A stretch of 64,000 nt of DNA from Acidobacteriota bacterium (GTDB lineage: Bacteria > Acidobacteriota > CAIWXX01). Positions within the stretch are counted from its first letter, which is position 1; every line of letters starts with the position of its first letter. The position numbers and the translations under genes are program-made. The DNA lies in NCBI GenBank assembly GCA_040755995.1, contig JBFMAF010000008.1, positions 1-64,000 on the forward strand. The letters are read 5' to 3'. Positions 40,016-58,512 of this stretch are shown one piece after another. Under the pieces are notes generated by a model. That model did no database searches. It was not told the origin of the DNA and was given only the letters and a program-made list of their open reading frames with translations.

Positions 40016-40931
40016 TCGTGGAAGACGAGCCTCCGATCGCGGATTACATCGAGGAGAGCATCCGCGCGGTCCTTGGGGCCGAGCTCAAGGACGTGGAGAC
40101 GGCCTATTCGCTCGATGATGCAGTGGGCCTCCTCGCGCAGAAGAAGATCGACGTCTGCTTCTTGGACCTCAACCTCAGCGGCCGGGACGGCTATGAAATA
40201 CTGGAACGGGCCATGTCCCGGCCGTTCCATACGATCATCATTTCCGCCCACACCGAGCAGGCCGCTCGCGCATTCGAGTACGGCGTCGTCGACTTCGTTC
40301 CCAAGCCCTTCAGCCGGGAGCGGCTGCGCCAGGCCCTCGACCGCTGTCTCAGCCTCCAGAGAAGCCCGTCCCCGGCGAGGTTTCTGACTTTCCGGAAGAA
40401 CAACCGGAACGGCCTCCTGCCGGTCGGGGAGATCCTCCTGTTGAAGGCCACGCGCTACCTGGTCGAGGTCTGGATGAAGGACGGCCGCCGCGAGCTGATC
40501 GAGAAGCCCTTGAACCGCCTGCAAAAGATCCTTCCCGAATCATTCGCCCGGATCCACCGGACGTATATCGTCAACCTGGATCAGGTCGAATCGTACAGGC
40601 ATCTCGGAGGGAGCCGTTATGCGATACGGTTGAAGAACGGCGACATCCTCCCGATGAGCCGCCATCGGCTCCGGGAACTCAAGCGCGTGTTCGGGAAGGA
40701 TTGTCCGGGACGGATTTGATCAGATGGTTCGTTGACAGTGACGGTCACCTGATCATGAAGTTCCCAAGTGAGACTCGTAAGATCAGGCCAGTGGGATCTG
40801 CTCGTCGAACGCCTGATCGATGATTGCGTTCGACACCACCCCATGTTCGCCGGACGACAGTCCGCACCTCGGCGGCGTGGAGCCGGCTCCGCTGCAGGCG
40901 CCGGGGATGATGTCGAGGACCAACTGCTTCC
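39081..40931 (+). repeat. Source of a diverged direct repeat (39081-39399 and 40526-40931 are copied at 45402-46119)
   Basis: Colinear near-identity at offsets 6321 and 5188, with scattered substitutions. Confidence 0.93.
40003..40719 (+). CDS. LytTR-family response regulator
   Basis: Receiver IVEDE/FLDLNL/PKP; LytTR FARIHRTYIVN; overlaps the kinase stop. Confidence 0.93.
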   Translation: MRVLIVEDEPPIADYIEESIRAVLGAELKDVETAYSLDDAVGLLAQKKIDVCFLDLNLSGRDGYEILERAMSRPFHTIIISAHTEQAARAFEYGVVDFVPKPFSRERLRQALDRCLSLQRSPSPARFLTFRKNNRNGLLPVGEILLLKATRYLVEVWMKDGRRELIEKPLNRLQKILPESFARIHRTYIVNLDQVESYRHLGGSRYAIRLKNGDILPMSRHRLRELKRVFGKDCPGRI

Positions 40932-40932
40932 T

Positions 40933-41583
40933 GTCCTGAAGAGCATCGTGCCGGCAGGCGCCTTCTGCTGCGGTTCAATTCTGGGGAGGAGCCCCGTGCG
41001 CCTGCGTGCGGAATCCCTGTCGGAGGTCGGGACCCCCGGGGAACAGGCCTGGGTCCCGGACTTGGAGCGGCGAATGATCAAGAGGTCCGAGTCCCCAGGA
41101 TGGGTCAAAGCGGAGAAGGCGGAGTATTGGATCAAGGATCTGATGGCGAACATGGACGAGATGCTCGATCGCGAGACCACCGTCAGATTGATGCAGGCCT
41201 GCGGGCGTTCATGCTTCCGCCTCGCCTTTGGCGTCACCGACGAGAACAAGTCTTCACGCGAAGATGTCCAGAAGTACCTGCGCTTCCTTGAGCAACGTGG
41301 CACTGGGCTCAAGCGCGAAGGCCATGTCGTAACTCTCACCTTCAATTGGGGAAGAGATCATCAGAACCCGTGGGGACTCACCATGCGTGATGGCTACTGT
41401 ATGTGCCCGCTGGTCGAGTCGGGCCCGCCGGGGCTTTCCCCCACATAATGCCTCTGCTCGACCGGATATGTGAGGGAGAGCTTCGAGCGCCGGGTCGGTG
41501 TCCCCGTGAAGGTTGAACCACTGGAGTCCCTCAAGATGGGGTGCCGGGACTGCGTGTTCAAGGTCACGATCACGGGGGTGTAG
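40933..41583 (+). pseudogene. Cys-containing exported protein (DUF6144-like), apparently 5'-truncated, with an in-frame TAA
   Basis: MQACGRSC...YCMCPLV...SPT-TAA(41446-41448)-CLCSTGYVRESFE...LESLKMGCRDCVFKV-TAG. The frame continues with family-like sequence. The start abuts the repeat end. Confidence 0.7.
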
Positions 41584-41606
41584 CGGCCCTCACCTCACTT
41601 GGAGGT

Positions 41607-41714
41607 CACGCCCTCATCGCCCAGCTGTGCATCCGCCACGAGTTCCGGTTGCTCACGAGCGATCTCGACTTCCAGCGCCTTGCGAGACACGCTCCTCTCG
41701 TCCTGATGGAGTGG
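41607..41714 (+). pseudogene. C-terminal relic of a PIN-domain (VapC) toxin
   Basis: ALIAQLCIRHEFRLLTSDLDFQRLARH matches the VapC C-terminal pattern (DxLIA...LLTxDxDF). No N-terminus or antitoxin seen. Confidence 0.7.
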
Positions 41715-42959
41715 CGGCAATCTCCTCAACAGATCTGGGCAACGGCACCGTTTCGCCGTCTCCTCACTCGGCCGGGGCGAGGCCATCGGCGCCGGGAAGA
41801 ACCGTCAGCGAGACTGAGCCGACCAACGCCTAGCCGATATCCCTCGCAGGTGCCAGCTGCAGTCCGTGCCTCTGCAAGGGGTTAAAGTCGTGCGGTACCA
41901 CCGTCTCGGGGTTTTTCGACGGGATTGGGGAAAACCTCCGACGCGATCCGATCGGCTGCGGCTGAGCAGAGATGTGAGTATTGCGGGGCGCGGTACGGAC
42001 TGTGAGGCTACAGTGCAGGAGCAGGGCGAGCCCCGGAGGGGCGGCACAACTGCGCTCCGATTGTCTCACCCCTCCGGCTCCGGCCGCCTGGATCACAAAC
42101 AGCTACCGGTTCCGGCTGCTCTGGCAGACCGATGAGAGTAGATCAGATATACATCACCTCGTCCTCCGGCCTCCTCGCCCGTGCCTCCCAGATCGTGCTG
42201 AGCCTCCAGCCGACTCGGCGCCGGGCGCCGCTGGTACGGACGTCTGCACCGCCTCCTCCTCAAACCGGCTGGAGTTTCTGGAACCCGCAGACCGTCTGGC
42301 GGGACTCAAGGGACTCCTGGGCATGTTCTGAATTGCACCGATACTCGCTCGCTGACCTCGCCTCCATACCTCCTTGCCGGCCCCGTCGACGCCTGCAAGG
42401 CGTGACAAGGGTCTGTGGCCTTGGCGGCCTCTGTCAGGTACCCGTCTCAGATGATTCACAGCGGGGACGGGTAGAGCCGCCTTCAGAGGGAAGTAGAACC
42501 GGTGGTCACTGTAGGACGCGACGCAGTCGTTCCGGCTGCTATCTTCGGAGCGACAGAGGGCGCAGGGCACGGTGACCTGGTTGGCCCCCCTGTAGCCGGG
42601 AGCCTGTTCTGGCAGTTGGGAGGATTCGCCGCAACCCGCTCAGTGGAACGACATTGTACCTGGTGTGGTGGTTAGGGACATCGCGTCGGTGAGAATCAAA
42701 ACGGACGGCGCATCGACCTCCGGACTGAAATCGGGGAGGATCGCGCGACACGGCTTGTGAGGGAAAGGGTTCTTCGATTGAGTCAATTCTTGCGCAACGC
42801 GTCATCCGCTCCGAGTACTCACGGTGGTCTCTCTCAACTCTCGACTGTTGACGCTCGACGCGCGGCGGGGCCGGAGCAGCATTGCAGGAATCGCCAGTCT
42901 GAGACCCCGCCTCGCCAGGTCTTGGAATGATCAGGAGCACCAGGAGATGACCTGCTTCG

Positions 42960-43427
42960 ATGGGCGTCGATTGGCTCAGTGCCGCCATCGAGGAGTTGCC
43001 CAGGATCGCCTGCCTGCGCGACGCCACATTCGAGTCGCGGGTGCAGAGAATGGGCAATTGCGGTGTGGGCATCACGAACCTGATCCTGGCTCCCACGGGG
43101 CAACTGAAAGCCTGCCTCTACCTGGAAGAGGATGAGTGCTTCGGGGATCTGAGAATCCAGACACTGGAAGACGTGTTCAACAGCCCGAGGGTGCGGGCGC
43201 TGGGAGAGCTGAGGGCGCCCGGAGGCGCCAGTTGCGCAGCCTGCACCTACGAGATGTTCTGTATGGGGTGTATCGTCAGGGGCATGAAGATCGTGGCCAA
43301 GCACAAACGGCAGTGCCGCTGGGCCCAGGAGAGAGAGTTGGGCCGGGCATTTCCCTCGTGCACTGACTATCCGTTTCAGGGAGGCGAAGGAATCTTCCGG
43401 GTGAACCCGAGTCAGTCCGTGTGCTAG
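42960..43427 (+). pseudogene. SPASM domain without a radical SAM core (truncated peptide-maturase-like gene, or a stand-alone domain)
   Basis: NCGVG..KAC..SCAACTYEMFCMGC..QC Cys pattern. In-frame TGA at 42948-42950; no CxxxCxxC seen upstream. Confidence 0.7.
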
Positions 43428-43451
43428 GCCCCGTCTGAGGCCGATTCCGAG

Positions 43452-45311
43452 ATGTGGGAAGCGTATTCGCTTGTCAAGCGGGCTCTCTTAGGACCGGTCG
43501 CATCGTGTTCGAGCCCTGGGGTTTTCGAGACACCGCGGCACCTGGGCTACCGCGACCTGGGGAGACTCCGGCCGTTCCTGGCCTCTCACTGGCGAAACGG
43601 GGCGGTGGCCGTTGCAGCGATGCTCGTGAGCACGCTGCTCTCGTTGCCGCAGCCGATGCTGGCGAAGTACGTTGTCGACGTTGTGATCGCAGGGCACGAC
43701 ATGCGGTTGCTCAACGTTGTTGGGCTCGGGATGATCGCCCTCGCAGTCGCAACCGCCCTGACTGGCCTCGTCCAGAACGTCCACCTGCTCCGATTCCAGC
43801 AGGATCTCATCTGCGAGATTCAGCAGAGGCTGCTGGATCGGGTCCTGCGCCTGCCGAAAGCGCTGCTGGACTCGAAGCAGACCGGGTACCTTGTCTCCCG
43901 GGTGGTGAGCGACGTCGCGCGGTTGCAGGCGCTCTTCTCGACGGGTGTGATCATGGTATTGCCCTCGGCGGTGAAGCTGACGTTCTGGCTCGGGGTGATG
44001 TTCTGGCTCAACTGGCGGCTGTCGCTGCAGGCGCTGGCGATCCTGCCGCTGATGATGTTGATAGCTCATCGGGCGGGAGGCCGCGTGAGGACTCTGAGCC
44101 GCGTGGCGATGGAGCGCGCGGCGGTGCTGTCTCGGGAGCTGCAGCAGTCGCTGGCGGGCCTGATGGTGATCAAGACGTTTGCCACTGAGTCCCGCGAGAC
44201 CCTGCGGCTGAAAGGAATTCTGCGCGATTCGATCGAGGTAGGAGTGGATCACGGTGTAGCCTCGACGGTCGCCACCCTGACGATCGGCCTGGTTGGAACG
44301 GTTGCACTGAGTTTGGTGACATGGGCTGGAGCGGGCCAGATCATCGCAGGATCGATGACGCTGGGAGATTTCGTCGCGTTTAACGCGTGTCTGGTAGCCA
44401 TTTACGGTCCGGCGCAGGCGCTGGTCTCGTTGAATGTCGCGGTGCAGGCCTCGTTTGCCGCACTAGAGCGGGTGTTCCAGTTGCTAGACCTGGTGCCCGA
44501 GGACGAGGACGACGATTCGAAAACGACCGTGCGGACCATCCGGGGTGACATCGCCTTCGAACACGTGATGTTCTCGTACGACGGCGTGAAACCGGTCCTG
44601 ACGGACATCTCGTTTGCCGCGAGACCGGGCGAGATGATCGCGCTGGTCGGTCCGAGCGGGGCGGGCAAGACGACGCTGGTCAGTCTGCTGGTGCGGTTGT
44701 ACAGCCCGTCCAGCGGTCGGATCCGCATCGACGGCACAGACGTCGCCGAGCTGAACGTGAGGTCGGTCCGGGAGCGGATCGCGGTCGTCTCCCAGGACGT
44801 ATTCCTCTTCGACGCCACGATTCGCGACAACATCCGGTACGCGAGGCCCTCGGCGTCTGATGCGGACGTCCGAGAAGCCGCGGCGCTGGCGGGCGCGCAG
44901 CAGTTCATCGAGGAGTTGCCGGACGGGTACGAAACGCGGGTCGGAGAGAGAGGCCAACGGCTGTCGGCAGGACAGAGACAGCGGTTGTCGCTGGCGCGGG
45001 CGTTTCTGAAGAGCCCCGATGTACTCGTCCTCGATGAGCCGACCTCGGCGCTGGATCCGTTGGCCGAGGGAGAAGTCAAGACGGCGATGACGCGGTTTGC
45101 CGAGGACCGGACCACGTTCGTGATCGGCCATCGTCTTTCCACGGTGGCCTGCGCGACGCGGATTCTGGTGCTCGACAAGGGGGTGATCGTCCAGGCGGGC
45201 TCGCACAGCGAGCTGATTCGACAGGAAGGGTTGTACAAGTCGATGTGCCGGAATCGGATGATCGCGGATCTCGTGCCTGCCGCGGCTGTGTCCAGGAAGA
45301 CAGGGTGCTGA
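43452..45311 (+). CDS. ABC exporter, fused TMD-NBD (MsbA/peptide-export type)
   Basis: TM domain plus GPSGAGKT, LSAGQRQRL, LVLDEPTSALD, GHRLST. Confidence 0.93.
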   Translation: MWEAYSLVKRALLGPVASCSSPGVFETPRHLGYRDLGRLRPFLASHWRNGAVAVAAMLVSTLLSLPQPMLAKYVVDVVIAGHDMRLLNVVGLGMIALAVATALTGLVQNVHLLRFQQDLICEIQQRLLDRVLRLPKALLDSKQTGYLVSRVVSDVARLQALFSTGVIMVLPSAVKLTFWLGVMFWLNWRLSLQALAILPLMMLIAHRAGGRVRTLSRVAMERAAVLSRELQQSLAGLMVIKTFATESRETLRLKGILRDSIEVGVDHGVASTVATLTIGLVGTVALSLVTWAGAGQIIAGSMTLGDFVAFNACLVAIYGPAQALVSLNVAVQASFAALERVFQLLDLVPEDEDDDSKTTVRTIRGDIAFEHVMFSYDGVKPVLTDISFAARPGEMIALVGPSGAGKTTLVSLLVRLYSPSSGRIRIDGTDVAELNVRSVRERIAVVSQDVFLFDATIRDNIRYARPSASDADVREAAALAGAQQFIEELPDGYETRVGERGQRLSAGQRQRLSLARAFLKSPDVLVLDEPTSALDPLAEGEVKTAMTRFAEDRTTFVIGHRLSTVACATRILVLDKGVIVQAGSHSELIRQEGLYKSMCRNRMIADLVPAAAVSRKTGC

Positions 45312-45326
45312 GGCCCGGCAGGCGAT

Positions 45327-45388
45327 TGGACACGCCCATGGTCCAGCAGACCTGGCGCTCTTGCAGCGTGTTCTCCGCCGGTACGGAA
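45327..45388 (+). repeat. 62-bp inverted copy of 47007-47068 (Ntn hydrolase gene segment)
   Basis: 57 of 62 positions identical by manual comparison with the reverse complement. Confidence 0.85.
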
Positions 45389-45907
45389 TTCCCCGGCGCC
45401 TTGGCCATGACCGGGACGGCCGTCTGGGGTTCCGCACTCGGCGATGTCCAGGCCCGGCTCATCGGCGTTCCGGTAGCTTTCGGCGTCGGCTTGGCCGTTG
45501 CCCTGGCAGTCCAGAGGAAGCGGGGATTGGGAATGGCTCTGGTCGGAACGGGGGTTCCCGCCGTCAACCATGTCGGGGTCTTTATCATCCCGGGGTTGTT
45601 ACCGTTTCAGGAGAGTCTGCCGGGATTCGCTGAAATGGCCCTGACCGCGCTGGTTCTGGCGATGTTCATTGGGATCATCGCCCTTCGCATCCGCGATGAG
45701 AACCAGGCACTTGAGATCCTTCCCGAATCATTCGCCCGGATCCACCGGACCTATGTCGTCAACCTGGACCAGGTCGAATCGTACAGGCATCTCGGAGGGA
45801 GCCGTTATGCGATCCGGTTGAAGAACGGGGATATTCTCCCGATGAGCCGCCATCGGCTCCGGGAACTCGAGCGCGTGTTCGGGAAGGATTGCCCGGGACG
45901 GATTTGA
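45338..45907 (+). pseudogene. Chimeric in-frame ORF: Ntn fragment + kinase TM segment + LytTR C-terminal part
   Basis: MVQQTWRSCSVFSAGTE / LAMTG...RDENQALEIL / PESFARIHRTYVVN...CPGRI, with no stops across either junction. Confidence 0.75.
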
Positions 45908-46119
45908 TCAGATGGTTCGTTGACAGTGAAGGTCACCCGGTCATGAAGTTCCCAAGTGAGACTCGTAAGATCAGGCCAGTTGGATCTGCTCGTCGAACGC
46001 CTGATCGATGATTGCGTTCGACACCACCCCATGTTCGCCGGCCGACAGTTCGCACCTCGGCGGCGTGGAGCCGGCTCCGCTGCAGGCGCCGGGGATGATG
46101 TCGAGGACCAACTGCTTCC
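45402..46119 (+). repeat. Diverged, internally deleted direct repeat of 39081-40931
   Basis: Junction at AGATCCT (45714-45720), which is shared by 39393-39399 and 40526-40532. Confidence 0.93.
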
Positions 46120-46190
46120 GGTCGAGCACAAACAAAGCCGCGGGTACGGGTGCCGGCCTTCGGCCTGGGTACGGTGCGTTGTGTCATGAT

Positions 46191-47330
46191 TCATCGCTCT
46201 GAGGCACCGCCTCGCTGGGTGCTGTCGGAGGCCGGGCCAGTGCTGTCTCCTTGCCGCGGCCAGAGTCCTTCCAGATGATAAAGAACATCCCACTTCTGAT
46301 ACACCGAGAAATGCAGATCCAACGTCTTCGGTGCATAGACGACAGACCACGTGGTGCCCTTCTGCGCAACTTCCTGAAGGAGTTTCATTCCGGCACTCCG
46401 GTCCGCGTTTCCTCTGGTCTTGTCGAGGGCTTCTGAGATGGTTCGGAAGCGCCAGCACTGTTCTCGAAGACTCGCATCCGGCACGCCGAACACCGGTTTC
46501 GTTGTGAGGACCTGCCAGGACCTCTGGGGGCGCACTATTCTCCACTGATCCTGCTCGTGTTCCAGGATCACCGAACGCCCCGATGCATCGGCGACCAGGA
46601 AATGCGCGTTGAACGAGTTTCGATCGAGGTCGAAGGGGATGAAGTCATTGATGAATGCCACCGCCTCCTCGACACTCCTCGTCCGGTCGAGGATCATGCG
46701 TATCAAGAAGGTAGTGAAGACCAATTGCTTGTTGGCTCTCGGCGCATGAGTGGTGGGTCTCACGCCGGCGACTGCAACAGTCAAGCCGTGCTCGTTGATG
46801 CCGTCCATGGCATAGAACGGGGCCAGAAGGAGCCTGTTCCCCATCTCACTCCCTTTGACCTGCTCGAGGTCAACGTTCAATGGAAATCCAATATCAATTG
46901 CCCTGGTAAACGAAATAGAGGAGTACCCGTTGGGAGGTTGATAGAAACTGACGATGATCGAGCCGACATTCTGATTGTCCCAATTCCTTCCGATGATTGG
47001 ACAGTGTTCCGTGCCGGCGGAGAATACGCTACAAAAGCGCCAGGTCTGCTGGATCATGGGCGTGTCCAGTGCTTTCTGGTTTTCCTTCCGGAACAGCTCC
47101 TCGCGATCGCCGAAATGTGTGATGAGGTAGAGCCCGTCCTGGCACATTCCCCCTGTTCCCTGGACCTTCACAATGCTCTGCTGCGTTCTGGCCTCATCTG
47201 ACATCGACCGCGGAGGCTGTTGGAATCTCACCTCGACGATCTCCTGCTGCGCACGCGCGAGCCCGGCGATGATGAACAGGGAAATCAATGACGACGCCCA
47301 GACCCTCCCCGGATCTCGATTGAATGACAT
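46191..47330 (-). CDS. Secreted linear amide C-N hydrolase (Ntn/choloylglycine hydrolase-like)
   Basis: AGGAGG RBS before MSFNR; signal peptide; CSVF..GRNWD, MDGINEHGL, HFLVADASGRSVILE, TTWSVVY. Confidence 0.85.
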   Translation of the reverse strand: MSFNRDPGRVWASSLISLFIIAGLARAQQEIVEVRFQQPPRSMSDEARTQQSIVKVQGTGGMCQDGLYLITHFGDREELFRKENQKALDTPMIQQTWRFCSVFSAGTEHCPIIGRNWDNQNVGSIIVSFYQPPNGYSSISFTRAIDIGFPLNVDLEQVKGSEMGNRLLLAPFYAMDGINEHGLTVAVAGVRPTTHAPRANKQLVFTTFLIRMILDRTRSVEEAVAFINDFIPFDLDRNSFNAHFLVADASGRSVILEHEQDQWRIVRPQRSWQVLTTKPVFGVPDASLREQCWRFRTISEALDKTRGNADRSAGMKLLQEVAQKGTTWSVVYAPKTLDLHFSVYQKWDVLYHLEGLWPRQGDSTGPASDSTQRGGASER

Positions 47331-47486
47331 CTGGGACCTCCTCTCCATCTCTGTACGTGGGTCCATGTTTTCGCGTTCCACTCGGCCTTCTCATGAGTGT
47401 ACGGTTGCGGAGCGGAGAGAAGTCGAGAAAAGACTCCGAATCGCTCTTTGAGACTCCCAGCTGCGTCCGCATGCCTGAACGCGCGA

Positions 47487-48650
47487 TTACCCGGCGGGTC
47501 TGGGGATTTCAGGTGGGCGGGCGTTTCGTGCGAGATCGACGAGCCGCCGGCAACTGGCAGCCAGGTCCGGACCGTGGCGATGCAAGTCGCCGCCGATAAG
47601 CAACACGACGTCAGGGCCGTAGAACGAGATCAGCTCGGGGACGCGCGGCAGGCTCATGCCGCCGGCCGGCACGGGGAAGATGGGATTGAGGCCCCCCAGG
47701 TCGCACTCGGTGCACTGCACGATATCGAGACACTCCTCGCGGCTGAACGAGAAGCGCCCGCGGAAACTGGGGAAGATCGTGGCGTCTGCGCCGGCGAGCC
47801 GCGCGATGCGACCGAATATCGTGCCATGAGAAATACCCGAGTCCCCGCTCACGATCGCCCAACCCTGCCACGCCGGATGGCTGAAGATCGGCAGGGCGAT
47901 CGAGTCGTCCTCGGCGATCCGCCGCATGAAGTCGAAGCCGCTGAGACCCGGCGAGAGTACGAAGCCGCCCGCTCCCCACTCAACCGCCTTGTGCACGCGC
48001 TCGATGAGCTCGTCGCACGGTGCCGTGACGTTAGGCAAATAGATGCAACGCCCGCCGTGCTTGGCGTTGGCCTCGTTCACGGCTGCGGCGCAGCGTCTCA
48101 CACGCTCCTCGAAGCGGCAGAAGCTCTGGTCGCAGAGGCCGTGGTCATCCTTGACCGCATCAATGCCGCCCGCTGCGAACTGGCCAGCAAGGATGGCCAG
48201 CTCGTGCGGCGAGAGCCCCATCGGCTTGACGGCGGTGCAGAGCAGCGGACCGGCCGGGCGACCGACCAGCCCGCGCACCCCCTGCCGGCCGAAGCGCGGC
48301 CCCTTGTACAACGCAGCCAGCCCCGGCGGCAGATCGAAGCCGACGAGCCTGATTCCCCTCTTCAGGCTTATGTTGCCCATGAGGACATTGAGCAGTTGTG
48401 TAAGCTCGCGGCCTGCGACCTCGATCGGATAGTCTACTTCCGCGCGATGCAGATCTTCTCCGAGCGGCCTGAGGTCCACTAGCCGGCCGATGATCCCCTC
48501 GCGCACGTCCTCGCGGTGGATCAGCTCCACCGGGAACTCCACTGTCTGCTCGACGCAGATCTCGCGCGCGATTTCCCCGGCCTCTGCCGCGTTCCCGCGC
48601 AGGTGGTAGACCGCCCGTAGGCGTTCACCGCTCAATGCCGGCGTTCCCAA
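47487..48650 (-). CDS. RuBisCO-like protein (form IV RLP; motifs resemble the DeepYkr clade)
   Basis: EQTVE, GNISL, GPRFG, TAVKPMGLS, KDDHGL, YLPNVT, SHPA, IFPSFRGRF, PVPAGGM, IGG. TTG start at 48650 after GAGG. Confidence 0.92.
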   Translation of the reverse strand: MGTPALSGERLRAVYHLRGNAAEAGEIAREICVEQTVEFPVELIHREDVREGIIGRLVDLRPLGEDLHRAEVDYPIEVAGRELTQLLNVLMGNISLKRGIRLVGFDLPPGLAALYKGPRFGRQGVRGLVGRPAGPLLCTAVKPMGLSPHELAILAGQFAAGGIDAVKDDHGLCDQSFCRFEERVRRCAAAVNEANAKHGGRCIYLPNVTAPCDELIERVHKAVEWGAGGFVLSPGLSGFDFMRRIAEDDSIALPIFSHPAWQGWAIVSGDSGISHGTIFGRIARLAGADATIFPSFRGRFSFSREECLDIVQCTECDLGGLNPIFPVPAGGMSLPRVPELISFYGPDVVLLIGGDLHRHGPDLAASCRRLVDLARNARPPEIPRPAG

Positions 48651-48660
48651 TGCTGCAGCC

Positions 48661-49680
48661 TCAAAGGTCCTCGACCACGCCGCCGCGGACCGGCTCAGGC
48701 GGCTCCGCCGCTGCCAGATCCTCCTCGCGCACACCCAGGGACTCGCCTGCCAATTCCTCAATTGCCCGCAAGAGGCCGAGGGCGTCGAGGCCATACTCGC
48801 GCATCAAATAGGTCCTGCTCGCACCGTGGGCGTAACAGTCCCTGAGCCCGAGGCGTACGAGCTTGCGCCCCACACCCGCCCCGGCCATCAGCTCGGCCGT
48901 CGCCGAGCCGAGTCCGCCGATTGTCGAGTGGTTCTCCAAGGTGATCACGCCGAGGCGTGCCGTCTGAACCGCATCGATCACTTGCGGATCGTCGAACGGC
49001 TTGAGTGTCGAGACGTGCAGGTGCGTAGCCGAGAGACCCCGGCGCTCGGCGGCCGCGATCGCCCGCACCGCCTCCTCGGTGCAGATGCCGCTCGTGATCA
49101 CAGCCAAATCGGTCCCCCGACGCAGCGTGCGAGCCTTGCCGATCTGGAGCGGCTCGTCGCGCGGGAACAGGCGAGGCACTTCGCCGCGCAGCATCCTCAC
49201 ATAGACAGGCCCATCGACCGGGTGAACCGCGTCGAGCACCGACTCCACATCGGTTGCGTCTCCGCAGTCGGTGACCGTCATGTTGGGCAGGGCCCGCATC
49301 AGCGCCACGTCGTCGATCGCCTGATGAGTCACGCCCCCAGGGGTGGTGACTCCTGGCAGGAAGCCGATCAGCCGCACCCTCAGATTCGGATAGGCAATCG
49401 ACATGGCGACCTGGTCCAGAGCCCGGCGGCAGATGAAGACGGCGAAGGTGTGGACATACGGGACAAAGCCCTCGCGGGCCAGGCCGCCTGCAAAGCCGAC
49501 CATGTTCTGCTCGGCCATGCCGAAAGAGAAAAAGCGCGCAGGGTAGGTCTCCCGAAAGTCGTCGGCCTCACACGACGATGTCAGGTCTGCGCTGAGCACG
49601 AGCAGCTCGGGATGATTCGCGGCGAAGCGAACCAAGTTGCGGGCGTGGGGCCGCTGCACCATCTCCATCTCAGGCCTCAC
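48661..49680 (-). CDS. Transketolase-like C-terminal subunit (pyrimidine-binding and C-terminal domains)
   Basis: LSADLTSS, FGMAEQNM, THQAIDD, PVYVR, STLKPFD, ENHSTIGGLG. Confidence 0.92.
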   Translation of the reverse strand: MRPEMEMVQRPHARNLVRFAANHPELLVLSADLTSSCEADDFRETYPARFFSFGMAEQNMVGFAGGLAREGFVPYVHTFAVFICRRALDQVAMSIAYPNLRVRLIGFLPGVTTPGGVTHQAIDDVALMRALPNMTVTDCGDATDVESVLDAVHPVDGPVYVRMLRGEVPRLFPRDEPLQIGKARTLRRGTDLAVITSGICTEEAVRAIAAAERRGLSATHLHVSTLKPFDDPQVIDAVQTARLGVITLENHSTIGGLGSATAELMAGAGVGRKLVRLGLRDCYAHGASRTYLMREYGLDALGLLRAIEELAGESLGVREEDLAAAEPPEPVRGGVVEDL

Positions 49681-50599
49681 TCAGATCGACCAGTGCGCGC
49701 CTGTAGGCCTCCCGCTCTGCCTCTGACTTGAAGCGCACGTAGTGGAGCCGCGGGCGGCGCTCCTCCAGCAGCGCGAGGCCGCGGCAGGGATCGGTGCGGC
49801 AAATCACCGCCAGTGGCCTGCCGGGCGCGAAGCCCTCACCTGCACTCGCGAGCGCCTCCAGGTCGTGGCCGTCGACTTCCTCGACCCGGGCTCCGAATGC
49901 TTCGAGCCGTGCCCGGAGCGGTTCGATGCGCATGACGTCGTCTATCTTGCCGTCGCACTGCTGCCCGTTGGCGTCGATGTAGACGCCGAGGTTGTCGACA
50001 CTGTGGTAGCTGAGCGCGGCAAATGCCTCCCATGTCTGCCCCTCTTGAAACTCGCCGTCGGACATGAAGACCCAGACCCGGCCTGTGTCGCCGCGCAGCT
50101 TGCGCGCAAGGGCGATGCCGCCCGCCTGGCTGATCGCCTGGGCGAGCGATCCGGCGGTGATTTCGTGGCCCGGCGAGTGCTCGGCGCCGATCATCTCCAA
50201 CGTACTCCCATCCTTGTTGAAGTCGTCAAGGGCGCAGTCGCCAAGGCGGCCGACCTCTATCAGCGCGGAGTAGAGTACAAGCGCGTAGTGCACGGGCGAG
50301 AAGATGAAGCGGTCGAGCTCAGGAGCTCTCTGCCCGTTGTAGTCGGCGCCGGTGAAAGCCCGAAGCTCGCCGGCCCGGGGCGTGGCGACGAACGGCCCAG
50401 GCACGAGCGGGCCCTGGCTCGGCCCCAGGCGCATCACTTTAAGGTAAAGAGCGGCCAGGATCTCCGCGGAGGAGCACGCCTGACTGAGATAGCCGCCGTT
50501 GTTTCTAAGCGTATGCTCCAGCACTCGCCGTCGAACCCCTCGCGCCATCCGGGCAGCTCGCGCTTGCCAGTCGTCAGCTGTGCCGTTGTGCCTCGTCAT
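49670..50599 (-). CDS. Transketolase-like N-terminal (ThDP-binding) subunit, divergent
   Basis: DRFIFS..H, GSLAQA, ThDP motif SDGEFQEG...DANGQQCDG, VDGHD; overlaps the C-subunit start. Confidence 0.9.
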   Translation of the reverse strand: MTRHNGTADDWQARAARMARGVRRRVLEHTLRNNGGYLSQACSSAEILAALYLKVMRLGPSQGPLVPGPFVATPRAGELRAFTGADYNGQRAPELDRFIFSPVHYALVLYSALIEVGRLGDCALDDFNKDGSTLEMIGAEHSPGHEITAGSLAQAISQAGGIALARKLRGDTGRVWVFMSDGEFQEGQTWEAFAALSYHSVDNLGVYIDANGQQCDGKIDDVMRIEPLRARLEAFGARVEEVDGHDLEALASAGEGFAPGRPLAVICRTDPCRGLALLEERRPRLHYVRFKSEAEREAYRRALVDLSEA

Positions 50600-50770
50600 C
50601 TGCTCGCTCCGCGCCAACCCTCGTCTGCCTCAATCTACACCACTTCCCTCGTGCCACGCCACCGCCTCCGCCATGAATGCCGGAGGCACCGAGGATGGCC
50701 GAATGGCCGAGGATGATGTTGACACACCGTTCGTCCAGCGGCAAGGATCGCGTGCGAAGGGGCTTCCAGC

Positions 50771-52059
50771 GTGCGCGTCTGGTCACGATTCCTTTGCGCG
50801 TCCTTGGCCGGAGGGCTGCTTCTAGCATCGATCACAGAGGCTGAGCGGCTGCCCATAAAGATGTTCACAACAGCCGACGGGTTGGCGCGTGACCACGTCA
50901 ACGATATTTTCTGTGACTCGAAAGGCTACGTCTGGCTGTGCACCACCGAGGGGCTGTCCCGGTACGACGGATACGGATTCAGGAATTACGGGATCGCCGA
51001 CGGCCTCCCGCATCCCTTGGTCACAGACATGGTTGAGGCCGGGGAGGGCCGGTACTCGGTGGCCACGGCTGGCGGGCTCTGCATGTTCGATGCAACGCGA
51101 GGCGGGAAGTTCACGGTCTGTGGACCTACTAGTGAGGCCGCGGGGGGCAGGTTCGTCGGAGCGATCACACCGAATAGGTCCGGATGGCTGTGGTGTGCCA
51201 CTGGCGCCGGTCTCCTCAGGATGCGGTTGGAGCGGAACAAACCGCGATTCGAAAAGGTTGATTTCGGCATGGCCTGGCCAACCAAAGAAGGCCCGCGAGT
51301 TCTCGACGTCGTCGAAGATCGGCTTGGCAGACTATGGATTGCGGCAGAGGGTGAGCTCTACAGCTACGATACCAACGCTCGCGCCGGCACCCGCGTCCCC
51401 GGCTTCGGCTCACCGTCCAATGGCGTCGGTGTGCTCCTGGCCGATCGAGACGGTAGCACATGGGTAGGGACAACAAATGGCGTCTACAAGCTGGCCGTGG
51501 ACGCGGCTGGTGAGGTTGCGGTGGAGCAGTCCTGGGGAGCCGCGACAGGGCTTCCTGTGGCGCACGTCGGGTCGCTGTTCCAGTCTTCGGACGGCAGCGT
51601 CTGGGTGGGCACGTTCGGCGGCTTGACATCATTCCGTCCGAATCGGGACGCAGGCGGATTCGATCTGCGATCCTACACGACGGCCAATGGTCTCAGCGAC
51701 GTCGGAATCGGGAGCATCACAGAAGACAGGGATGACAACCTGTGGGTCGGTACCGAGGTCGGCGGCGTGATGAAGATCTCGCAGAGCGGGTTCATGTCCT
51801 ACGACGGGGCCGACGGGCTGGGAGGCATTCGAATCGATGCAATCTTCGAGGACCTGCAGGGGGAACTCTGTGCCTACACCACCCTGCGAGACAGCATCAA
51901 CATATCGAGGTGGATGGGAAACGCCTTTCGAGTCACGCGGCCGAATCTTCCCTGCGGGATCACCTACACGGGGTGGGGCACCCACCAGCTCGCTCTACAG
52001 GACCACACGGGTGAGTGGTGGATACCCACCGGACAGGGGCTCTGCCGCTACCCGGGTAG
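50771..52059 (+). pseudogene. Truncated two-component sensor with ligand-binding beta-propeller (Reg_prop repeats)
   Basis: Signal peptide, FTTADGL, DSKGYVWLCTTEGLSRYDG, EDRDDNLWVGT repeats. It breaks mid-propeller with no TM or kinase; the ORF formally stops at 52138. Confidence 0.8.
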
Positions 52060-52493
52060 TCAGCCCCAAAGAGACCGCTCACGGGGAGCTCGGCCGCAGG
52101 GAGGAATGAATCGGGCTGGTCATGATCGGCATTGTTGACCAGGATGTCGACCTTTCCGAGAAGCGCTTCAGCCTTGTCCATGAGGCGTAGGATGTTGTCG
52201 GGGTCGGCAAGGTCAACCTCCCATGCCTCGCAGCGGCCTCCGAACGAGTCGACAGAGCGGATGACACCTTCGGCGCCCTGGGCAAGTATCTTGTGGTAGA
52301 GGTTGGGGCCTGGGTCCTCCGACGCTTTGAGTTCCCCATTACATCCCACTCCGAGCCACTCTGGAAAGAGCCGCAGGTACGTCACGAAGATGTCCGCCCC
52401 TTCGCTGGCCAGCGCGATGGCCGTGGCTGCGCCAATGCCGTGATTGGCGCCTGTCACCAGCGCCACCTTGCCATTGAGTCCAGTGTCCATCAT
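52048..52493 (-). pseudogene. Truncated short-chain dehydrogenase/reductase
   Basis: AAGGAG RBS; GKVALVTGANHGIG, DILVNNA. The catalytic YxxxK half is missing. Confidence 0.82.
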
Positions 52494-52837
52494 GGTCGTT
52501 CTCCTTTGAGGAATGACAGAATGCACGGATCGCCATGCCCGCCGACAGCGGGTCGAAGGAGGAGTAACTCAGGATAGGCTTACTTCATCGTCTTCTGGAC
52601 CAGACAATAGGCCGTTCGAGCAGGCATGTCAATCCATGCGCGATGAGACACAATGCAAGCGAGATGGGGCCGCGAGTCTCCGCGGGTGCACAACGTCGCA
52701 ATCACGCGACTAGCTCCCGCCGGACCGTCGCAGTGGCGCGGCTCCTAACACGTCCACGGCGCTCCGGACCCTCTCCAAGCGCTTGATCAGCAACTGCCTG
52801 ATTCACCTCTGCCAAGACCCCCTGCCGCACGGCCCAT

Positions 52838-52853
52838 CGGCACGTGAATTGCA
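52838..52853 (+). promoter_or_regulatory. Sigma-54 (-24/-12) promoter
   Basis: CGGCACG-TGAA-TTGCA with GG-N10-GC spacing, just upstream of the NifX-like gene. Confidence 0.75.
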
Positions 52854-52876
52854 GGGCTACCAAGGGGAGGCGTACC

Positions 52877-53428
52877 TTGAGCAAGGTGGCGGTTACGCAA
52901 TGGCTGGGTAGAGTTGCGCCCTTGTTCGACACGGCCCGTAGGGTCGTAGTCGTGGACGTGCGGGACGGCGCGAGGGGTTCGAGCCAAGAAGGGGAATTGC
53001 CGGACGGAGGGCCGAGCCACAGAATCCAGGCACTCTGCACCCTCGGCGTCGACGCGCTGATCTGCGGGGCGATATCGAGGCCGATCGCCCGGATGCTCGG
53101 TGCATGCGGCATCAGCGTTATCCCTTTCGTCGCCGGGTCTGTCGACGATGTCCTAAACGCTTACACCTCTGGAAGACTCCAATCGCCCCAGTTCGCTATG
53201 CCGGGGTGCGGCCAGGGGCGAGGCCGCGGTGGCCGGGGGCCGGGGGGTCAGTGCGTTTGTCCGAAGTGCGGCCGCCGAGAGCCGCATCTGAGGGGCAGCC
53301 CGTGCAGCGATGAGGCATGCCCCGTGTGCGGGTCACAAATGATGAGGGGGAGAGGGCCCTCTCGCGGGAAGGGAGGAGTACCATGGCAGGAACAGCCAGA
53401 ACAGGGCAGTGGGAATGGGGACCGATGA
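52877..53428 (+). CDS. NifB/NifX (FeMo-cofactor-binding family) protein fused to a Cys-rich GPGG-CxCPxCG domain
   Basis: GGAGG RBS with TTG start; RVAPLFD, VDALICGAIS; GPGGQCVCPKCG..PHLRGSPC..CPVCG. Confidence 0.82.
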   Translation: MSKVAVTQWLGRVAPLFDTARRVVVVDVRDGARGSSQEGELPDGGPSHRIQALCTLGVDALICGAISRPIARMLGACGISVIPFVAGSVDDVLNAYTSGRLQSPQFAMPGCGQGRGRGGRGPGGQCVCPKCGRREPHLRGSPCSDEACPVCGSQMMRGRGPSRGKGGVPWQEQPEQGSGNGDR

Positions 53429-53730
53429 GCGGCCGGCCCGTCGGGTACGGCGGAGGAGCTGGCGGTGGAGGCGGCGCCGGATACGGTGGCTCGCACACAC
53501 GGCACGCCGCCGGGCACGGTTGGCGCCACATCTTCCGCACATCCTGGATCCCTGGATGGATGCGATTCGGGCCGGGCTGGGAGCCGCTCTCCCCCGCCGG
53601 GCGCACCGAGCTCACCCACGAGTCGGAGAAGGAGTATTTGCAGCAGGAAATCGCCGCACTTCAAGACCAGCTCGATATCGCCAAGAGGCGCCTGGAAGAG
53701 CTCTCAGCCGCCGATCAGAAAGAGGGATGA
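53383..53730 (+). CDS. DUF5320-like Gly-rich protein with C-terminal coiled coil
   Basis: GGAGG RBS; GPMSGRPVGY, PGWMRFG, EKEYLQQEIAALQDQL; paralog of 57010-57378. Confidence 0.75.
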   Translation: MAGTARTGQWEWGPMSGRPVGYGGGAGGGGGAGYGGSHTRHAAGHGWRHIFRTSWIPGWMRFGPGWEPLSPAGRTELTHESEKEYLQQEIAALQDQLDIAKRRLEELSAADQKEG

Positions 53731-53886
53731 GAGGCAGAAGGCGCGGCTGCCCGAGCATTCGCTCGAACAACCTCCGCGATTGGATTCCCCGGGGTCGAGG
53801 TCTCCGTCGACGAGGACTTGGGTGTAGTCTGGCAGCCGCGATCGGCCCCTGCCTCTCGTCATCGGTGCGGGAACGCGGAGGTCTCT

Positions 53887-53918
53887 TCACCGCGTCACCG
53901 TGTCTCCGCGTCTCCGCG
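53887..53918. repeat. Short tandem repeat, 4 x 8 bp (TC[A/T]CCG[C/T]G)
   Basis: tcaccgcg tcaccgtg tctccgcg tctccgcg in an intergenic region. Confidence 0.55.
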
Positions 53919-54142
53919 TCTACTTCAATGGAGCGCCGCGTCCCCGTCCGCTCCACCCCAACAAGTGGTCGGGGATCGGGAGCCCTTGTTGCTACCCGCG
54001 CGGCGCATCTCGGGGAGGGGCGGTGAGCAGTGCTCCTCCGGTCTCGCCGTCCCTCCCCATTCTTTTCGGGACCTCGGAGCGCGCGCTCAGGCTCGCACTC
54101 CGCCCCTGCCGCCGACTATAATCGATGCGAGGTGGCGGAGGA

Positions 54143-55066
54143 GTGAAGTCGCGACCTGGACTTGAAGCAGCGCTGGCCGCTCTCCTGTCCGCGTGGTTTG
54201 GCGCCGCGGGATGCTGCGAAGGTTCGCCTGTCATCATCGACACGGATATGGCGCTGGACGATGTGCGCGCCATCGCTCTGCTCGCCTGTTCGAAGACACT
54301 GGAGATCAAAGCCGTCGTCACCTCTGACGGCGCAGCCGGTGCAGCTGCTGGATACGAGAACGCACTGGCTGTACTCGCGATCCTCGATCTCGATCACGTT
54401 CCGGTCGGGATGGGTCGGCCGCTGGACGCGCCACCGCCGCCTTGGCGCGGGCTTTCCGACGCGCTTGGATGGTCTCCGATGGGCTCGGCGGGTACACCGG
54501 GCCGATCACCGGCCGAGACGGTCGCGGTGGTGTCCAGCACTCTGGATGGCTCGGCCGCTCCCGTTGACTACATCTGCCTGGGACCACTCACGAACCTGGC
54601 GCAGGTGCTGCGGGAGAAGCCTGCGTTAGCGACCCGAATCGCAAGGGTGCTCTATGTTGGATCGAAGCGCGCCGATCCAACACCAGGCTGGAACACGCTT
54701 CGCGACACGGAGGGCGCCGATCGGGTCCTCGGGGCAGACCTCACCGTCTACCAGTTCGACTTGGAAGAGCCGAACGTGCTCCGATTCGATTCCGGCCTGT
54801 GGCAGGAGGTCGGTCGGATCGATACGGTCCCTTCAAATCTCATCTACGACCTGCATCGCGACAGCCGCGTCCAGGCGCTGCTGCGGGAACGGCATTTCTG
54901 TGCGTGGGACGAGACTGTCGCCCTCTACTTGCACGCTCCGACCATCGCCAGCACAGAACCACTCCCGGGTCGACCGCGCGGGCTCAGGATAGGCGGAGTA
55001 GACGTCGATGCCGCCCGGAACACTTACCTGGCGATCCTGAGACGGGGTCGAGCGGGACGATCGTGA
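54143..55066 (+). CDS. Nucleoside hydrolase (IU-NH family) with signal-peptide-like N-terminus
   Basis: IIDTDMALDD Asp cluster, LGPLTNLA, GWN, AWD. Start uncertain (54125 or 54143). Confidence 0.82.
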   Translation: MKSRPGLEAALAALLSAWFGAAGCCEGSPVIIDTDMALDDVRAIALLACSKTLEIKAVVTSDGAAGAAAGYENALAVLAILDLDHVPVGMGRPLDAPPPPWRGLSDALGWSPMGSAGTPGRSPAETVAVVSSTLDGSAAPVDYICLGPLTNLAQVLREKPALATRIARVLYVGSKRADPTPGWNTLRDTEGADRVLGADLTVYQFDLEEPNVLRFDSGLWQEVGRIDTVPSNLIYDLHRDSRVQALLRERHFCAWDETVALYLHAPTIASTEPLPGRPRGLRIGGVDVDAARNTYLAILRRGRAGRS

Positions 55067-55223
55067 TCGCCTACGAGGCACCGACCGGAACCCCCATCGA
55101 TCAGCAACCGCATTCTCCGCCCAGTGCGTGTCCGGCGTCTCACACGCCCCCAACGCGGCAGCCGGGCCTTCTCGGCGGGCAATGCCTCGCATACAACGTG
55201 GCCCCTACTCAAGGAGACGACAC

Positions 55224-56489
55224 ATGGAAGCGTCGAATCGACCGGAGGATCTGAAGAAACATTTCTACCTGGATTGCGGATTCGCCACACGCGCGCTGCA
55301 TGCAGGTGAGCACGTCGGGCAACCGCATTTCACGAACCACACCAACGCGATATTCCAGACGTCCACGTTCACCTTCGAAACGGCGAAGGACGGTGCCGAT
55401 CTGTTCGCGGCGCGGAAGGAGGGATTTGTCTACACGCGCATGGGCAACCCCACGGTGCTCGTGCTCGAGGCCAAGCTCGCAGCCCTCGAAGGGTGCGCCT
55501 ACAAATTGGCGCATCCTGAGAAGACCGTGTCGTGCATTGCGTTTTCCTCGGGAATGGCAGCCATCTCCTCCACGATGATGGCCATCCTGCGCCCCGGCGA
55601 TACACTGATCGCCGGAGAGGTGCTTTATGGCGCCACCGAGGACTTCTTCCGGACCGTCCTGCAGCCGCTTGGGATACGGTGGGTGCCCGTCGAGACCTCG
55701 AACCTGGAACTTCTTGAGGCAGCCCTGCGCCAGCACGACCGCGTGCGTGCTGTCTACTTCGAGACGCCGACCAACCCGTTGATGGGGATCACCGACATAC
55801 AGGCGCTTTCGACTCTCGTGCGCAGCATCAGGCCCGACTGCCACATCGTCGTCGACAACACTTTCGCGACACCGTTCCTGCAGCGCCCCCTCGAGCTCGG
55901 CGCAGACGTCGTGCTGCACTCCACCACCAAGTACATCGGGGGCCACGGCACGGTGATCGGCGGTGCAGTGATCATGGTGGACGAGGAGGTGCGCACTCAC
56001 CTCTACCACATGATGAAGGATTTCGGTGGGTGTCCGTCGCCGTTCGATGCGTGGCTCGTGAACGCAGGGCTGAAGACCCTGCCCCTCCGAATGCGCGAGC
56101 ACTGCGCCAACGCGCAGCGCATCGCCGAGTTCCTCGAACAGCACCCGAAGGTCGATCGCGTCTTCTACCCAGGGCTGCCTTCCTTCCCGCAGCATGACAT
56201 GGCCAAGAAGCAGATGAGCGGGTTCGGCGGCATCCTGTCATTCGAGATCAAAGGAGGCTACGCCGCCGCCGAGAAGGTGATGAACAGCGTGAGGTTGTTC
56301 ACCCTGGCAGTCTCCCTTGGATGCGTGGATTCGCTGATCCAGCATCCAGCGTCCATGACCCACGCCATGATCCCGCGCGGGGAGCGCGAGCGCATCGGGA
56401 TCTCCGAGGGCCTCGTTCGCCTCTCTGTCGGCGCGGAGGACGTGAACGACCTGCTGGGCGACCTCGAAAGCGCGCTCGGCAACGCGTAG
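55224..56489 (+). CDS. Cys/Met metabolism PLP enzyme (methionine gamma-lyase/cystathionine gamma-lyase/synthase family)
   Basis: [46 protein letters not shown] (PLP Lys), LAVSLG, HPASMTH. Confidence 0.92.
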
Positions 56490-56713
56490 CGAAGACTGAA
56501 TCGTCTAATAGCGCGGGTCGAGCACCGCCCCGTGGCCTTGCTGGTTCGGCGCGCACACCTCCCGGCATTCCCCGATCCCCCTCGGAGTCGCAGAAACGCG
56601 ACTCGTCTGGGCGGCCTCGGTATCGCCAGGGCGACCCCGGCGGAAGGATCGAGTATTGCGATTACCCGCGCTATCAAGCGGTCGATCTCCTCTTCGATGC
56701 CCCTGTGCCCCCC

Positions 56714-56729
56714 TGGCACTATCTTTGCT
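56714..56729 (+). promoter_or_regulatory. Sigma-54 (-24/-12) promoter
   Basis: TGGCAC-TATCT-TTGCT with GG-N10-GC spacing, upstream of the ORP-like operon. Confidence 0.82.
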
Positions 56730-56753
56730 ATGCATGAAACCTGGAGGAAAGGA

Positions 56754-56981
56754 ATGAACCAGAGAACAAGAGAAGGACGAGGGGCGATGGGCGGGAGGCG
56801 CAGAGACGTGGGCGGCCCAGGCGGACAGGGCCGCGGCCGGATGGGCGGAGCCTTCGCGGCCGGCCCCGGCGGTGAATGCGTCTGTCCGCAGTGCGGCCAT
56901 CGCGAGCCGCATCAGCGCGGGGTGCCCTGCACCGGACGACTGTGTCCCAAGTGCGGGGTCGCCATGACAAGAGAACCATGA
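56754..56981 (+). CDS. Small Gly/Cys-rich protein (GPGG-CxCPxCG domain)
   Basis: GPGGECVCPQCGHREPHQRGVPCTGRLCPKCGVAMTRE; same domain as the C-terminus of 52877-53428. Start 56754 or 56787. Confidence 0.75.
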   Translation: MNQRTREGRGAMGGRRRDVGGPGGQGRGRMGGAFAAGPGGECVCPQCGHREPHQRGVPCTGRLCPKCGVAMTREP

Positions 56982-57009
56982 CTGGATATGCACGAAAGGA
57001 GAACGACAC

Positions 57010-57378
57010 ATGCCGAGAGGTGACAGAACCGGGCCCGTCGGAATGGGTCCTATGACAGGCCGCGGAGCGGGATACTGTGCTGGGTTCGGCATGCCTGGCT
57101 ACGCGAATGCGGCGCCTGGGCAAGCGTGGGGCTTCGGCCGGACGGGTAGAGGAGCTGGCCGCGGATTCGCTGGGGGGGGTCGCGGACGGCGGCACTGGTT
57201 CCACGCAACTGGTTTGCCGGGGTGGATGCGATTCGGCGGCTGGGTGGGGCCGTACGCGAAAGCGGACCCGGAGCTGGAGAAGCATGCACTGAAGAGCCAG
57301 GCACAAGCCATACAGGCGGAGCTGGACTCGATCCAGAGCCGGCTCTCCGAGTTGGAAGCCAACGCAGGCAAGGAGTAA
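57010..57378 (+). CDS. DUF5320-family protein
   Basis: MPRGDRTGPVGMGPMTGRGAGYC, Gly/Arg-rich middle, C-terminal coiled coil. Confidence 0.85.
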   Translation: MPRGDRTGPVGMGPMTGRGAGYCAGFGMPGYANAAPGQAWGFGRTGRGAGRGFAGGGRGRRHWFHATGLPGWMRFGGWVGPYAKADPELEKHALKSQAQAIQAELDSIQSRLSELEANAGKE

Positions 57379-57387
57379 CTGGAAACC

Positions 57388-58503: not shown

Positions 58504-58512
58504 CCCGCCGAA

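Follow-up and report, generated by a model that had tools for sequence, protein, structure and literature searches.

A RuBisCO-like protein and a remodelled split transketolase as a probable branch of methylthioadenosine salvage

The operon considered here lies in a 64,000-nucleotide stretch of an Acidobacteriota genome (assembly GCA_040755995.1, contig JBFMAF010000008.1, positions 1 to 64,000; hereafter the window). Its three minus-strand genes encode the two chains of a transketolase-like protein, TK-N (50599..49670, 309 aa, predicted to be a remodelled chain binding the diphosphate of thiamine diphosphate, ThDP) and TK-C (49668..48661, 335 aa, the pyrimidine-binding and C-terminal chain), and a RuBisCO-like protein of form IV (RLP, 48650..47487, 387 aa). 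The pairing of RLP with the two transketolase chains, together called TK, is real and conserved, and is probably a further branch of the salvage of 5'-methylthioadenosine (MTA) with a predicted ThDP-dependent step. From sequence comparisons we consider it likely that the operon supplies the later steps of an MTA route that needs no oxygen, in the salvage of S-adenosylmethionine (SAM) by-products, and that TK takes 1-methylthio-xylulose-5-phosphate, the substrate of the cupin methylsulfurylase.

Linkage of RLP and TK and exclusion of the cupin

The surroundings of the RLP were analyzed in the best 80 of 181 genome loci. A TK subunit stands beside the RLP in 45 of them (53-74% identity) and both subunits in 40; the loci with both RLP and TK span Pseudomonadota, Planctomycetota, Myxococcota, Bacillota, Acidobacteriota, Spirochaetota and Calditrichota. 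A cupin gene is present in five of the 80, none of which has TK. TK-N was considered in the best 80 of 452 metagenome loci, of which 45 have at least 1500 nt downstream: in these the RLP was found in 35 cases and TK-C in 43, and cupin queries matched 0 of the 80 loci. The linkage that an earlier note on this DNA had proposed is thus conserved in other genomes, whichever of the two partners is taken as the starting point. The same note had tied the system to anaerobes, which proves too narrow, as it also occurs in Myxococcota, Planctomycetota, purple sulfur bacteria and diatoms; nor is the split into two chains a defining hallmark of TK, many relatives being single-chain proteins. Within the host's own phylum TK is present in 4 of 251 genomes, with an RLP alongside in all four.

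Fusions connect TK both to the RLP and to the step that precedes it. Many of the longer TK-N relatives are TK-N::TK-C single chains, and RLP::TK-N::TK-C chains exist as well, two of them in named diatoms: P0273 of Conticribra weissflogii (1130 aa) and P0287 of Discostella pseudostelligera (1066 aa). In three further proteins (P0356, P0367, P0378) MtnA is fused to TK-N, the MtnA part being over its cut-off. MtnA and MtnK are also the commonest genes upstream of the TK operon. Neighbours in the 80 TK loci are distributed as follows: mtnA in 11, mtnK in 5, a purine nucleoside phosphorylase in 4 and a SorC-type regulator in 14, the examples scanned reaching NCBIfam cut-offs (curated ones for MtnA and MtnK). 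In three of the 80, metY lies just upstream of TK-N, accompanied by metX in the locus checked.

Some loci show additional associations. Upstream of TK-N in L217, L227 and L238, an LsrF-type thiolase gene (over cut-off) and an aldolase gene or aldolase-SDR (short-chain dehydrogenase/reductase) gene stand by mtnA/mtnK and the operon; LuxS is encoded near the operon in L228, and together these genes may form a parallel branch for other SAM by-products. The TK-RLP operon runs on into bacterial microcompartment genes, vertex genes among them, in L219 (1896-10228) and L222 (146-8536), the latter with a second RLP copy. In both L031 (4326-7863) and L041 (2667-9641), genes for a sugar importer, an NAD dehydrogenase and an FGGY kinase precede the RLP; the L041 cluster is succeeded by E1 alpha, E1 beta and E2 genes of a 2-oxoacid or acetoin dehydrogenase, possibly a third way of cleaving a 1-deoxy-ketose. 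At positions 5100-5400 of L133 (genome G002, same family), the start of TK-N is joined to a middle piece of the RLP, an internal deletion of the operon; this genome has dxs.

The relation to the cupin was then examined in 50 whole genomes, picked by hand from the 80 RLP loci (28 without an adjoining TK-N and 22 with one). TK was found without a methylsulfurylase-type cupin in 34 genomes, the cupin without TK in 14, both in none and neither in two; leaving out one unpublished cupin genome (G052, locus L046), the counts are 34, 13, 0 and 2 of 49. In genomes of Thiohalocapsa, Thiococcus and Planctomycetes, TK lies away from the RLP. Two cupin queries matched 29 sequences in 26 of the 50 genomes. 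Raw E-value was dropped as a classifier since two cupin groups overlap at about 1e-14 to 1e-19, and trees and best PDB hits were used instead. Rooted at its midpoint, the tree of the 29 rows has two groups, separated with support 99/99. One consists of 15 rows, which come from 14 genomes without TK; the other contains every one of the 13 rows found in TK genomes, together with a second copy that one genome without TK carries. Rru_A2000 is matched at E 1.5e-61 by a row of the first group, and a row of the second is TM1459-like. In six of the 14 cupin genomes the cupin is near an Rru_A2000-like query (E of 1e-25 or lower); those of the remaining eight are assigned by the tree, and four of them also by their position in the RLP locus. 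MtnA occurs in 49 of the 50 genomes and MtnB in 0; MtnA is widespread in any case, with 8 of 14 control genomes having it. The simplest reading is one isomerase with two interchangeable follow-on enzymes, and the idea, already put forward from the window, that TK replaces the cupin is backed by the absence of any genome with both among these 50.

The predicted isomerase and the active site of TK

The RLP is the sole RuBisCO-family gene found in the host genome, which is 99.84% complete. Its best sequence match in the PDB is 3QFW (E 2.8e-72; runner-up 9.4e-48), titled as an RLP from R. palustris, and a fold search with its predicted structure (pLDDT, the predicted local distance difference test score, 93.8) again puts 3QFW first. 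We take this entry to be RLP1 by elimination, because 2QYG is titled rlp2 and the accessible text of PMC5893883 names two RLPs. The protein falls below the curated cut-offs of MtnW (204.7 of 409 and 157.4 of 513.6 bits) and below that of the 3-oxo-isoapionate-4-phosphate decarboxylase OiaX (95.7 of 700 bits). It is likewise distinct from the carboxylating RuBisCO of forms I-III, with KDDH in place of KDDE and 141 of 497 and 131 of 438 bits. These matches place it with the DeepYkr RLPs of R. rubrum and R. palustris, as a predicted 5-methylthioribulose-1-phosphate 1,3-isomerase, and apart from MtnW and OiaX; the assignment comes from the PDB matches by sequence and fold, the R. rubrum RLP itself not being among the rows of the tree; its position outside the MtnW and apionate types is as the earlier note had supposed. 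The three motifs which that note read as marks of form IV (KPMG, KDDH and FPSFRGRF) are all present, and KPxG, KDDH and (F/Y)P(N/S)xGGRF are common to the RLP and 3QFW; the arginine of FPSFRGRF (residue 297, Gly-to-Arg), however, is peculiar to this copy, with glycine at that place in 113 of 116 relatives, and does not mark the family.

In R. rubrum and R. palustris, the DeepYkr RLP converts methylthioribulose-1-phosphate to 1-methylthio-xylulose-5-phosphate, which a cupin then converts to 1-deoxy-xylulose-5-phosphate (DXP) and methylthio-glutathione (PMC5893883, in the text available). In a quick-search tree of 68 RLP rows, 14 cupin-partnered rows are interleaved with TK-partnered ones in a single clade (SH-aLRT 100): for example, in a clade of 97% support in Chromatiaceae, Thiobaca and Thiodictyon (cupin) fall within Thiorhodococcus, Imhoffiella and Marichromatium (TK). 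No column of the RLP alignment tells cupin-partnered from TK-partnered proteins. RLPs of this type are also said to convert 5-deoxyribulose-1-phosphate to DXP. A divergent RLP of the same clade is present in the host's own phylum (L134, genome G021), in a genome without TK.

The TK residues were compared in an alignment of 128 TK-N and 111 TK-C rows of the clade with, respectively, 14 and 17 further rows that these loci and genomes supplied; the frameshifted TK-N of L018 dropped out of the clade rows, a few of which are repeat copies of one gene. Positions follow the E. coli transketolase, its numbering being transferred by alignment and not from a ligand-bound structure; for some positions this numbering, and for H26 the role, are what we take them to be. 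The ThDP and metal site is kept throughout the clade: the Asp and Asn of GDG..N, E411, H66, H261 and H473 are found in 126-128 of 128 TK-N and 111 of 111 TK-C rows (H66 in 126), with E160 also kept and S385 and R520 each present in 109 of 111. The TK-N of the window retains D181, N211, E186, H104 and H286, and its TK-C the equivalents of E411, S385, H473 and R520. In the clade, the GDG motif has Ser or Thr in place of its first Gly.

The residues that handle the substrate are replaced. H26 is Tyr in 127 of 128 TK-N rows (Y37 in this copy), the H100 position lacks His in 128 of 128 (Met, Leu or Ile by alignment), H461 is Leu in 110 of 111 TK-C rows and D469 is Gly in 111 of 111; I189, under the thiazolium, is Cys in 120 of 128 (C215 in this copy). 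New residues characterize the clade as well: a second specific cysteine, C42, in 127 of 128 rows, a Glu-His pair four places past H100 in 128 of 128 (E140-H141 in this copy), a near-invariant Tyr and Arg that follow H261 and, close to the N-terminus of TK-C, a His (105 of 111). More distant TK-N relatives (P0132, P0135, P0139, P0141-P0149) share the Tyr-for-His change and diverge further. According to the accessible part of PMC7661550, H66, H100, G114 and H473 bind the donor in transketolase, H100 corresponds to Phe in DXP synthase (DXS), and the H100L variant accepts pyruvate, a donor without a C1 hydroxyl; D469T favours non-polar acceptors (PMC10787763, as far as its text is accessible). The pattern of TK fits a donor without a C1 hydroxyl and a poor aldose-acceptor site. 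By its four clade-wide replacements TK is not an ordinary transketolase, and the genome encodes a canonical split transketolase as well, on a different contig. Databases call its relatives 'transketolase', as do the ESM Atlas clusters; TK-C scores 150 of 466 bits against TIGR00204 (DXS), a full-length cut-off that a split chain cannot reach.

A proposed route and competing explanations

The host genome encodes an MTA phosphorylase over its cut-off and MtnA, both away from the operon. MtnK was not found with one query and MtnB is not over cut-off in that genome; its sole class II aldolase domain is the end of a 1233-aa protein. As the earlier note had observed for the window, there is no cupin partner: four queries over the whole genome, one of them with E 1.5e-61 to Rru_A2000, gave no methylsulfurylase-type cupin. 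In the route that we propose, MTA phosphorylase and MtnA would produce 5-methylthioribulose-1-phosphate from MTA, and the RLP, by homology, would isomerise it to 1-methylthio-xylulose-5-phosphate. As distribution, fusions and residues suggest, this compound would be taken by TK-N/TK-C instead of the cupin. ThDP would attack C2, and cleavage between C2 and C3 would free glyceraldehyde-3-phosphate; the ThDP-bound two-carbon unit would lose methanethiol to give acetyl-ThDP, whose acetyl group would leave as acetate, acetyl phosphate or a thioester. Elimination from a ThDP-bound two-carbon unit that leads to acetyl-ThDP has precedent in phosphoketolase and sulfoacetaldehyde acetyltransferase. Unlike the cupin step, the TK step would need no glutathione and make no DXP.

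The methylthio compound is the likelier substrate of TK because it is the substrate of the cupin and because dxr, found in 24 of the 34 TK genomes, would let these use DXP as it is; the 1-deoxy branch, from 5'-deoxyadenosine, is less well supported. The parallel with the cupin and the metY genes beside TK-N speak for the release of methanethiol. We tentatively propose cleavage at C2-C3 with methanethiol, an acetyl unit and glyceraldehyde-3-phosphate as products. A shade more tentative is the wider claim of a new ThDP reaction, in which a transketolase-fold enzyme would eliminate methanethiol from 1-methylthio-xylulose-5-phosphate with no reductant or oxygen, and hence of a further MTA salvage route.

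Several observations weigh against the favoured reading. The invariant His four residues beyond the H100 position could stand in for H100. Ten of the 45 informative TK loci have no nearby RLP; some resemble contexts with an RLP elsewhere in the genome, and L216 and L232-L234 are unexplained. The microcompartment genes joined to the operon in L219 and L222, with an acylating aldehyde dehydrogenase in L219, favour an aldehyde product. The L031 and L041 RLP genomes have neither partner, their RLP lying in a sugar-kinase cluster, and the substrates of this RLP clade may be more than one. MetY, which would re-fix methanethiol, is over cut-off in 22 of the 34 TK genomes and 6 of the 14 cupin genomes and is not so in the host genome, where sulfur recovery is therefore not assured. 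The count of 0 genomes with both TK and cupin comes from 50 hand-picked genomes, mostly drafts of unstated completeness, among which kin are not independent.

Two other outcomes lie within the favoured assignment of the operon. TK could release a free aldehyde (methylthioacetaldehyde or acetaldehyde) and glyceraldehyde-3-phosphate from 1-methylthio- or 1-deoxy-xylulose-5-phosphate, for carbon use or detoxification, as a two-enzyme counterpart of the aldolase of the dihydroxyacetone phosphate (DHAP) shunt. The acylating acetaldehyde dehydrogenase and microcompartment genes of L219 and the vertex genes of L222 point this way, as do the sugar ATP-binding cassette importers, MtnK and SorC-type regulators of many loci and the lack of MetY in 12 of 34 TK genomes and in the host. 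We find it rather unlikely: the microcompartment link amounts to two related loci out of 80, the exclusion of the cupin is best explained by a common job on the methylthio compound, and in the genomes with dxr the destruction of DXP would drain the methylerythritol phosphate (MEP) pathway. It is also unlikely that TK is a true transferase, passing the methylthio-bearing two-carbon unit to an aldose, or a thiol-using methylsulfurylase giving DXP and methanethiol like the cupin. The acceptor-binding Asp is gone in all 111 TK-C rows, ten TK genomes have neither dxs nor dxr, and no thiol-redox gene turned up when 1570 called neighbour genes were scanned crudely for CxxC motifs; consistent with such activities are the transketolase fold with H473, R520 and S385 retained, the two clade-specific cysteines C42 and C215, and the presence of dxr without dxs in the host and two other Acidobacteriota.

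Three explanations depart further from MTA salvage. That the RLP-TK pair chiefly catabolises another imported sugar, a deoxy- or branched pentose, the link to SAM by-products being secondary, seems to us quite improbable. In its favour, same-clade RLPs of L031 and L041 share a cluster with genes for a sugar importer, an FGGY kinase and an NAD dehydrogenase, and some TK loci contain a class II aldolase, an LsrF-type thiolase or an aldolase-SDR; however, MtnA and MtnK, each of which exceeds its curated cut-off, are the genes seen most often upstream, MtnA is found fused to TK-N, and the exclusion of the cupin would be left unexplained. The two chains might instead form a split DXS, making DXP from pyruvate and glyceraldehyde-3-phosphate. 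The near-complete host genome has dxr and no dxs over cut-off, and the H100 equivalent is lost in TK as it is in DXS. Yet dxs is present in 22 of the 34 TK genomes, with neither gene in 10 and dxr alone in two. In a phylum sample of 41 genomes (G000-G040, of which the dxs- and dxr-positive G025 is unpublished), dxr occurs in 38, dxs in 21 and dxr without dxs in 17; just 2 of these 17 have RLP and TK, and one has the RLP alone. The tie to RLP and MtnA would also be unexplained, and a split DXS is thus very unlikely. On the same distribution a bypass of DXS was ruled out as the purpose of the operon, with most dxr-only genomes of the phylum lacking it; the RLP could still add some DXP in this host. 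The source of DXP is unexplained in the 17 genomes, most of which are without any RLP. Finally, an ordinary transketolase adjoining the RLP by chance is hardly credible: the database name of its relatives would agree with it, but the four replaced substrate residues, the canonical split transketolase elsewhere in the genome, and the conserved linkage and fusions do not.

The favoured reading, in which TK acts in place of the cupin, would account for MTA disposal in genomes with MtnA and a DeepYkr RLP and neither MtnB nor cupin (34 of the 50 sampled), and assigns a function that can be put to the test to a large protein family that currently goes by the name 'transketolase'. If true, the TK route is commoner than the cupin route among the sampled genomes; if methanethiol is the product, TK is an unrecognised biological source of this gas, through the RLP::TK fusion inside diatoms as well. 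TK also shows, in nature, changes at H100 and D469 of the kind introduced by engineering to broaden the donor and acceptor range of transketolase. Culturable hosts exist in Thiorhodococcus, Marichromatium and Imhoffiella, with cupin-using relatives (Thiobaca) as controls. A full-text literature search, which left outside it the neighbourhood figures and supplements of Erb 2012, Warlick 2012, North 2020 and Carter 2018, did not find the RLP-transketolase pair, and the word 'transketolase' is absent from the searchable portions of PMC6302742, PMC6079011 and PMC13474568; the pairing is provisionally regarded as undescribed.

The operon in the window and related systems

The three-gene minus-strand operon described earlier is real and intact, the same three open reading frames being recovered. 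TK-N runs from ATG 50599 to a TGA ending at 49670. TK-C likelier starts at ATG 49668, 1 nt past the TK-N stop, which yields 335 aa as in most homologues, than at GTG 49680 (339 aa); the overlap formerly noted between the two genes holds with the GTG and becomes a 1-nt gap with the ATG, and the 10-nt gap between the TK-C stop and the RLP start, TTG 48650, stands. The RLP ends with a TAA. Pfam identifies Transketolase_N in TK-N, Transket_pyr and Transketolase_C in TK-C and RuBisCO_large in the RLP. GC content by codon position (0.70/0.48/0.81) fits that of real genes. Departures from columns conserved at 90% or more number 3, 2 and 2 per gene, the median values among relatives being 2, 2 and 3, and the copy appears not to be decaying. 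No Rfam RNA, riboswitches included, was found in window positions 40000-60000; the scan of 11 loci gave group II intron pieces and nothing else. A promoter scan gave 0 sites, and 3 terminator-like sites were seen for 1.6 expected.

Just downstream of the operon lies a C45-family autoproteolytic acyltransferase/hydrolase gene (46191-47381, minus strand), not conserved there in other loci, and beyond it a chimeric stretch (45398-46123) in which two segments of sensor kinase and response regulator genes, from 39077-39399 and 40526-40935, are copied at 93-96%. On the other side, the block 50718-61472 is paralogous to positions 1711-24442 of contig C38 (74-80% identity) and comprises a propeller protein, a nucleoside hydrolase, a methionine gamma-lyase-like gene and ATPases; the propeller gene of the window (50771-52138) is less than half the length of its C38 copy. 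The methionine gamma-lyase-like gene (55128-56489) and the nucleoside hydrolase (54125-55066) were excluded as parts of the operon, since they belong to this block, which is duplicated on C38 without the operon. The position of the operon between two duplicated stretches, and a nearest RLP in the tree from a Myxococcales genome, hint at lateral gain.

As for related systems, the likeness to phosphoketolase and sulfoacetaldehyde acetyltransferase, as we understand these enzymes, is mechanistic only, Pfam and NCBIfam giving neither family for the present proteins. The following comparisons refer to the cited papers as far as their text is accessible. The MTA-isoprenoid shunt of R. rubrum and R. 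palustris consists of MtnP, MtnA, a DeepYkr RLP and the cupin (PMC5893883); the host likewise has MtnP and MtnA, no MtnB and an RLP nearest that of R. palustris, with a ThDP enzyme in the cupin's place and products that are probably not DXP and methylthio-glutathione. The best solved match of both TK chains is the split-gene transketolase of Carboxydothermus hydrogenoformans (6YAK/6YAJ; PMC7661550; E 2.4e-34 and 1.2e-61), which shares the domain split and the metal and ThDP residues. TK differs from it by the replaced equivalents of H26, H100, H461 and D469, by Pro for the Lys before H66 and Cys for the thiazolium Ile, and by an insert of about 30 residues in TK-N. The DHAP shunt (MtnP or MtnK, MtnA and a class II aldolase; 10.1101/2023.08.10.552779) has the same upstream enzymes and also splits the pentose into C2 and C3 parts without oxygen; it employs one aldolase on the 1-phosphate, whereas the host would employ an isomerase and a ThDP enzyme via the 5-phosphate and would free glyceraldehyde-3-phosphate. 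The sulfo-transketolase SqwGH (PMC11659671) is another split transketolase specialised for a sulfur-bearing sugar: it retains the sugar-orienting residues and alters the head-group site, whereas in TK it is the sugar-orienting residues that are altered.

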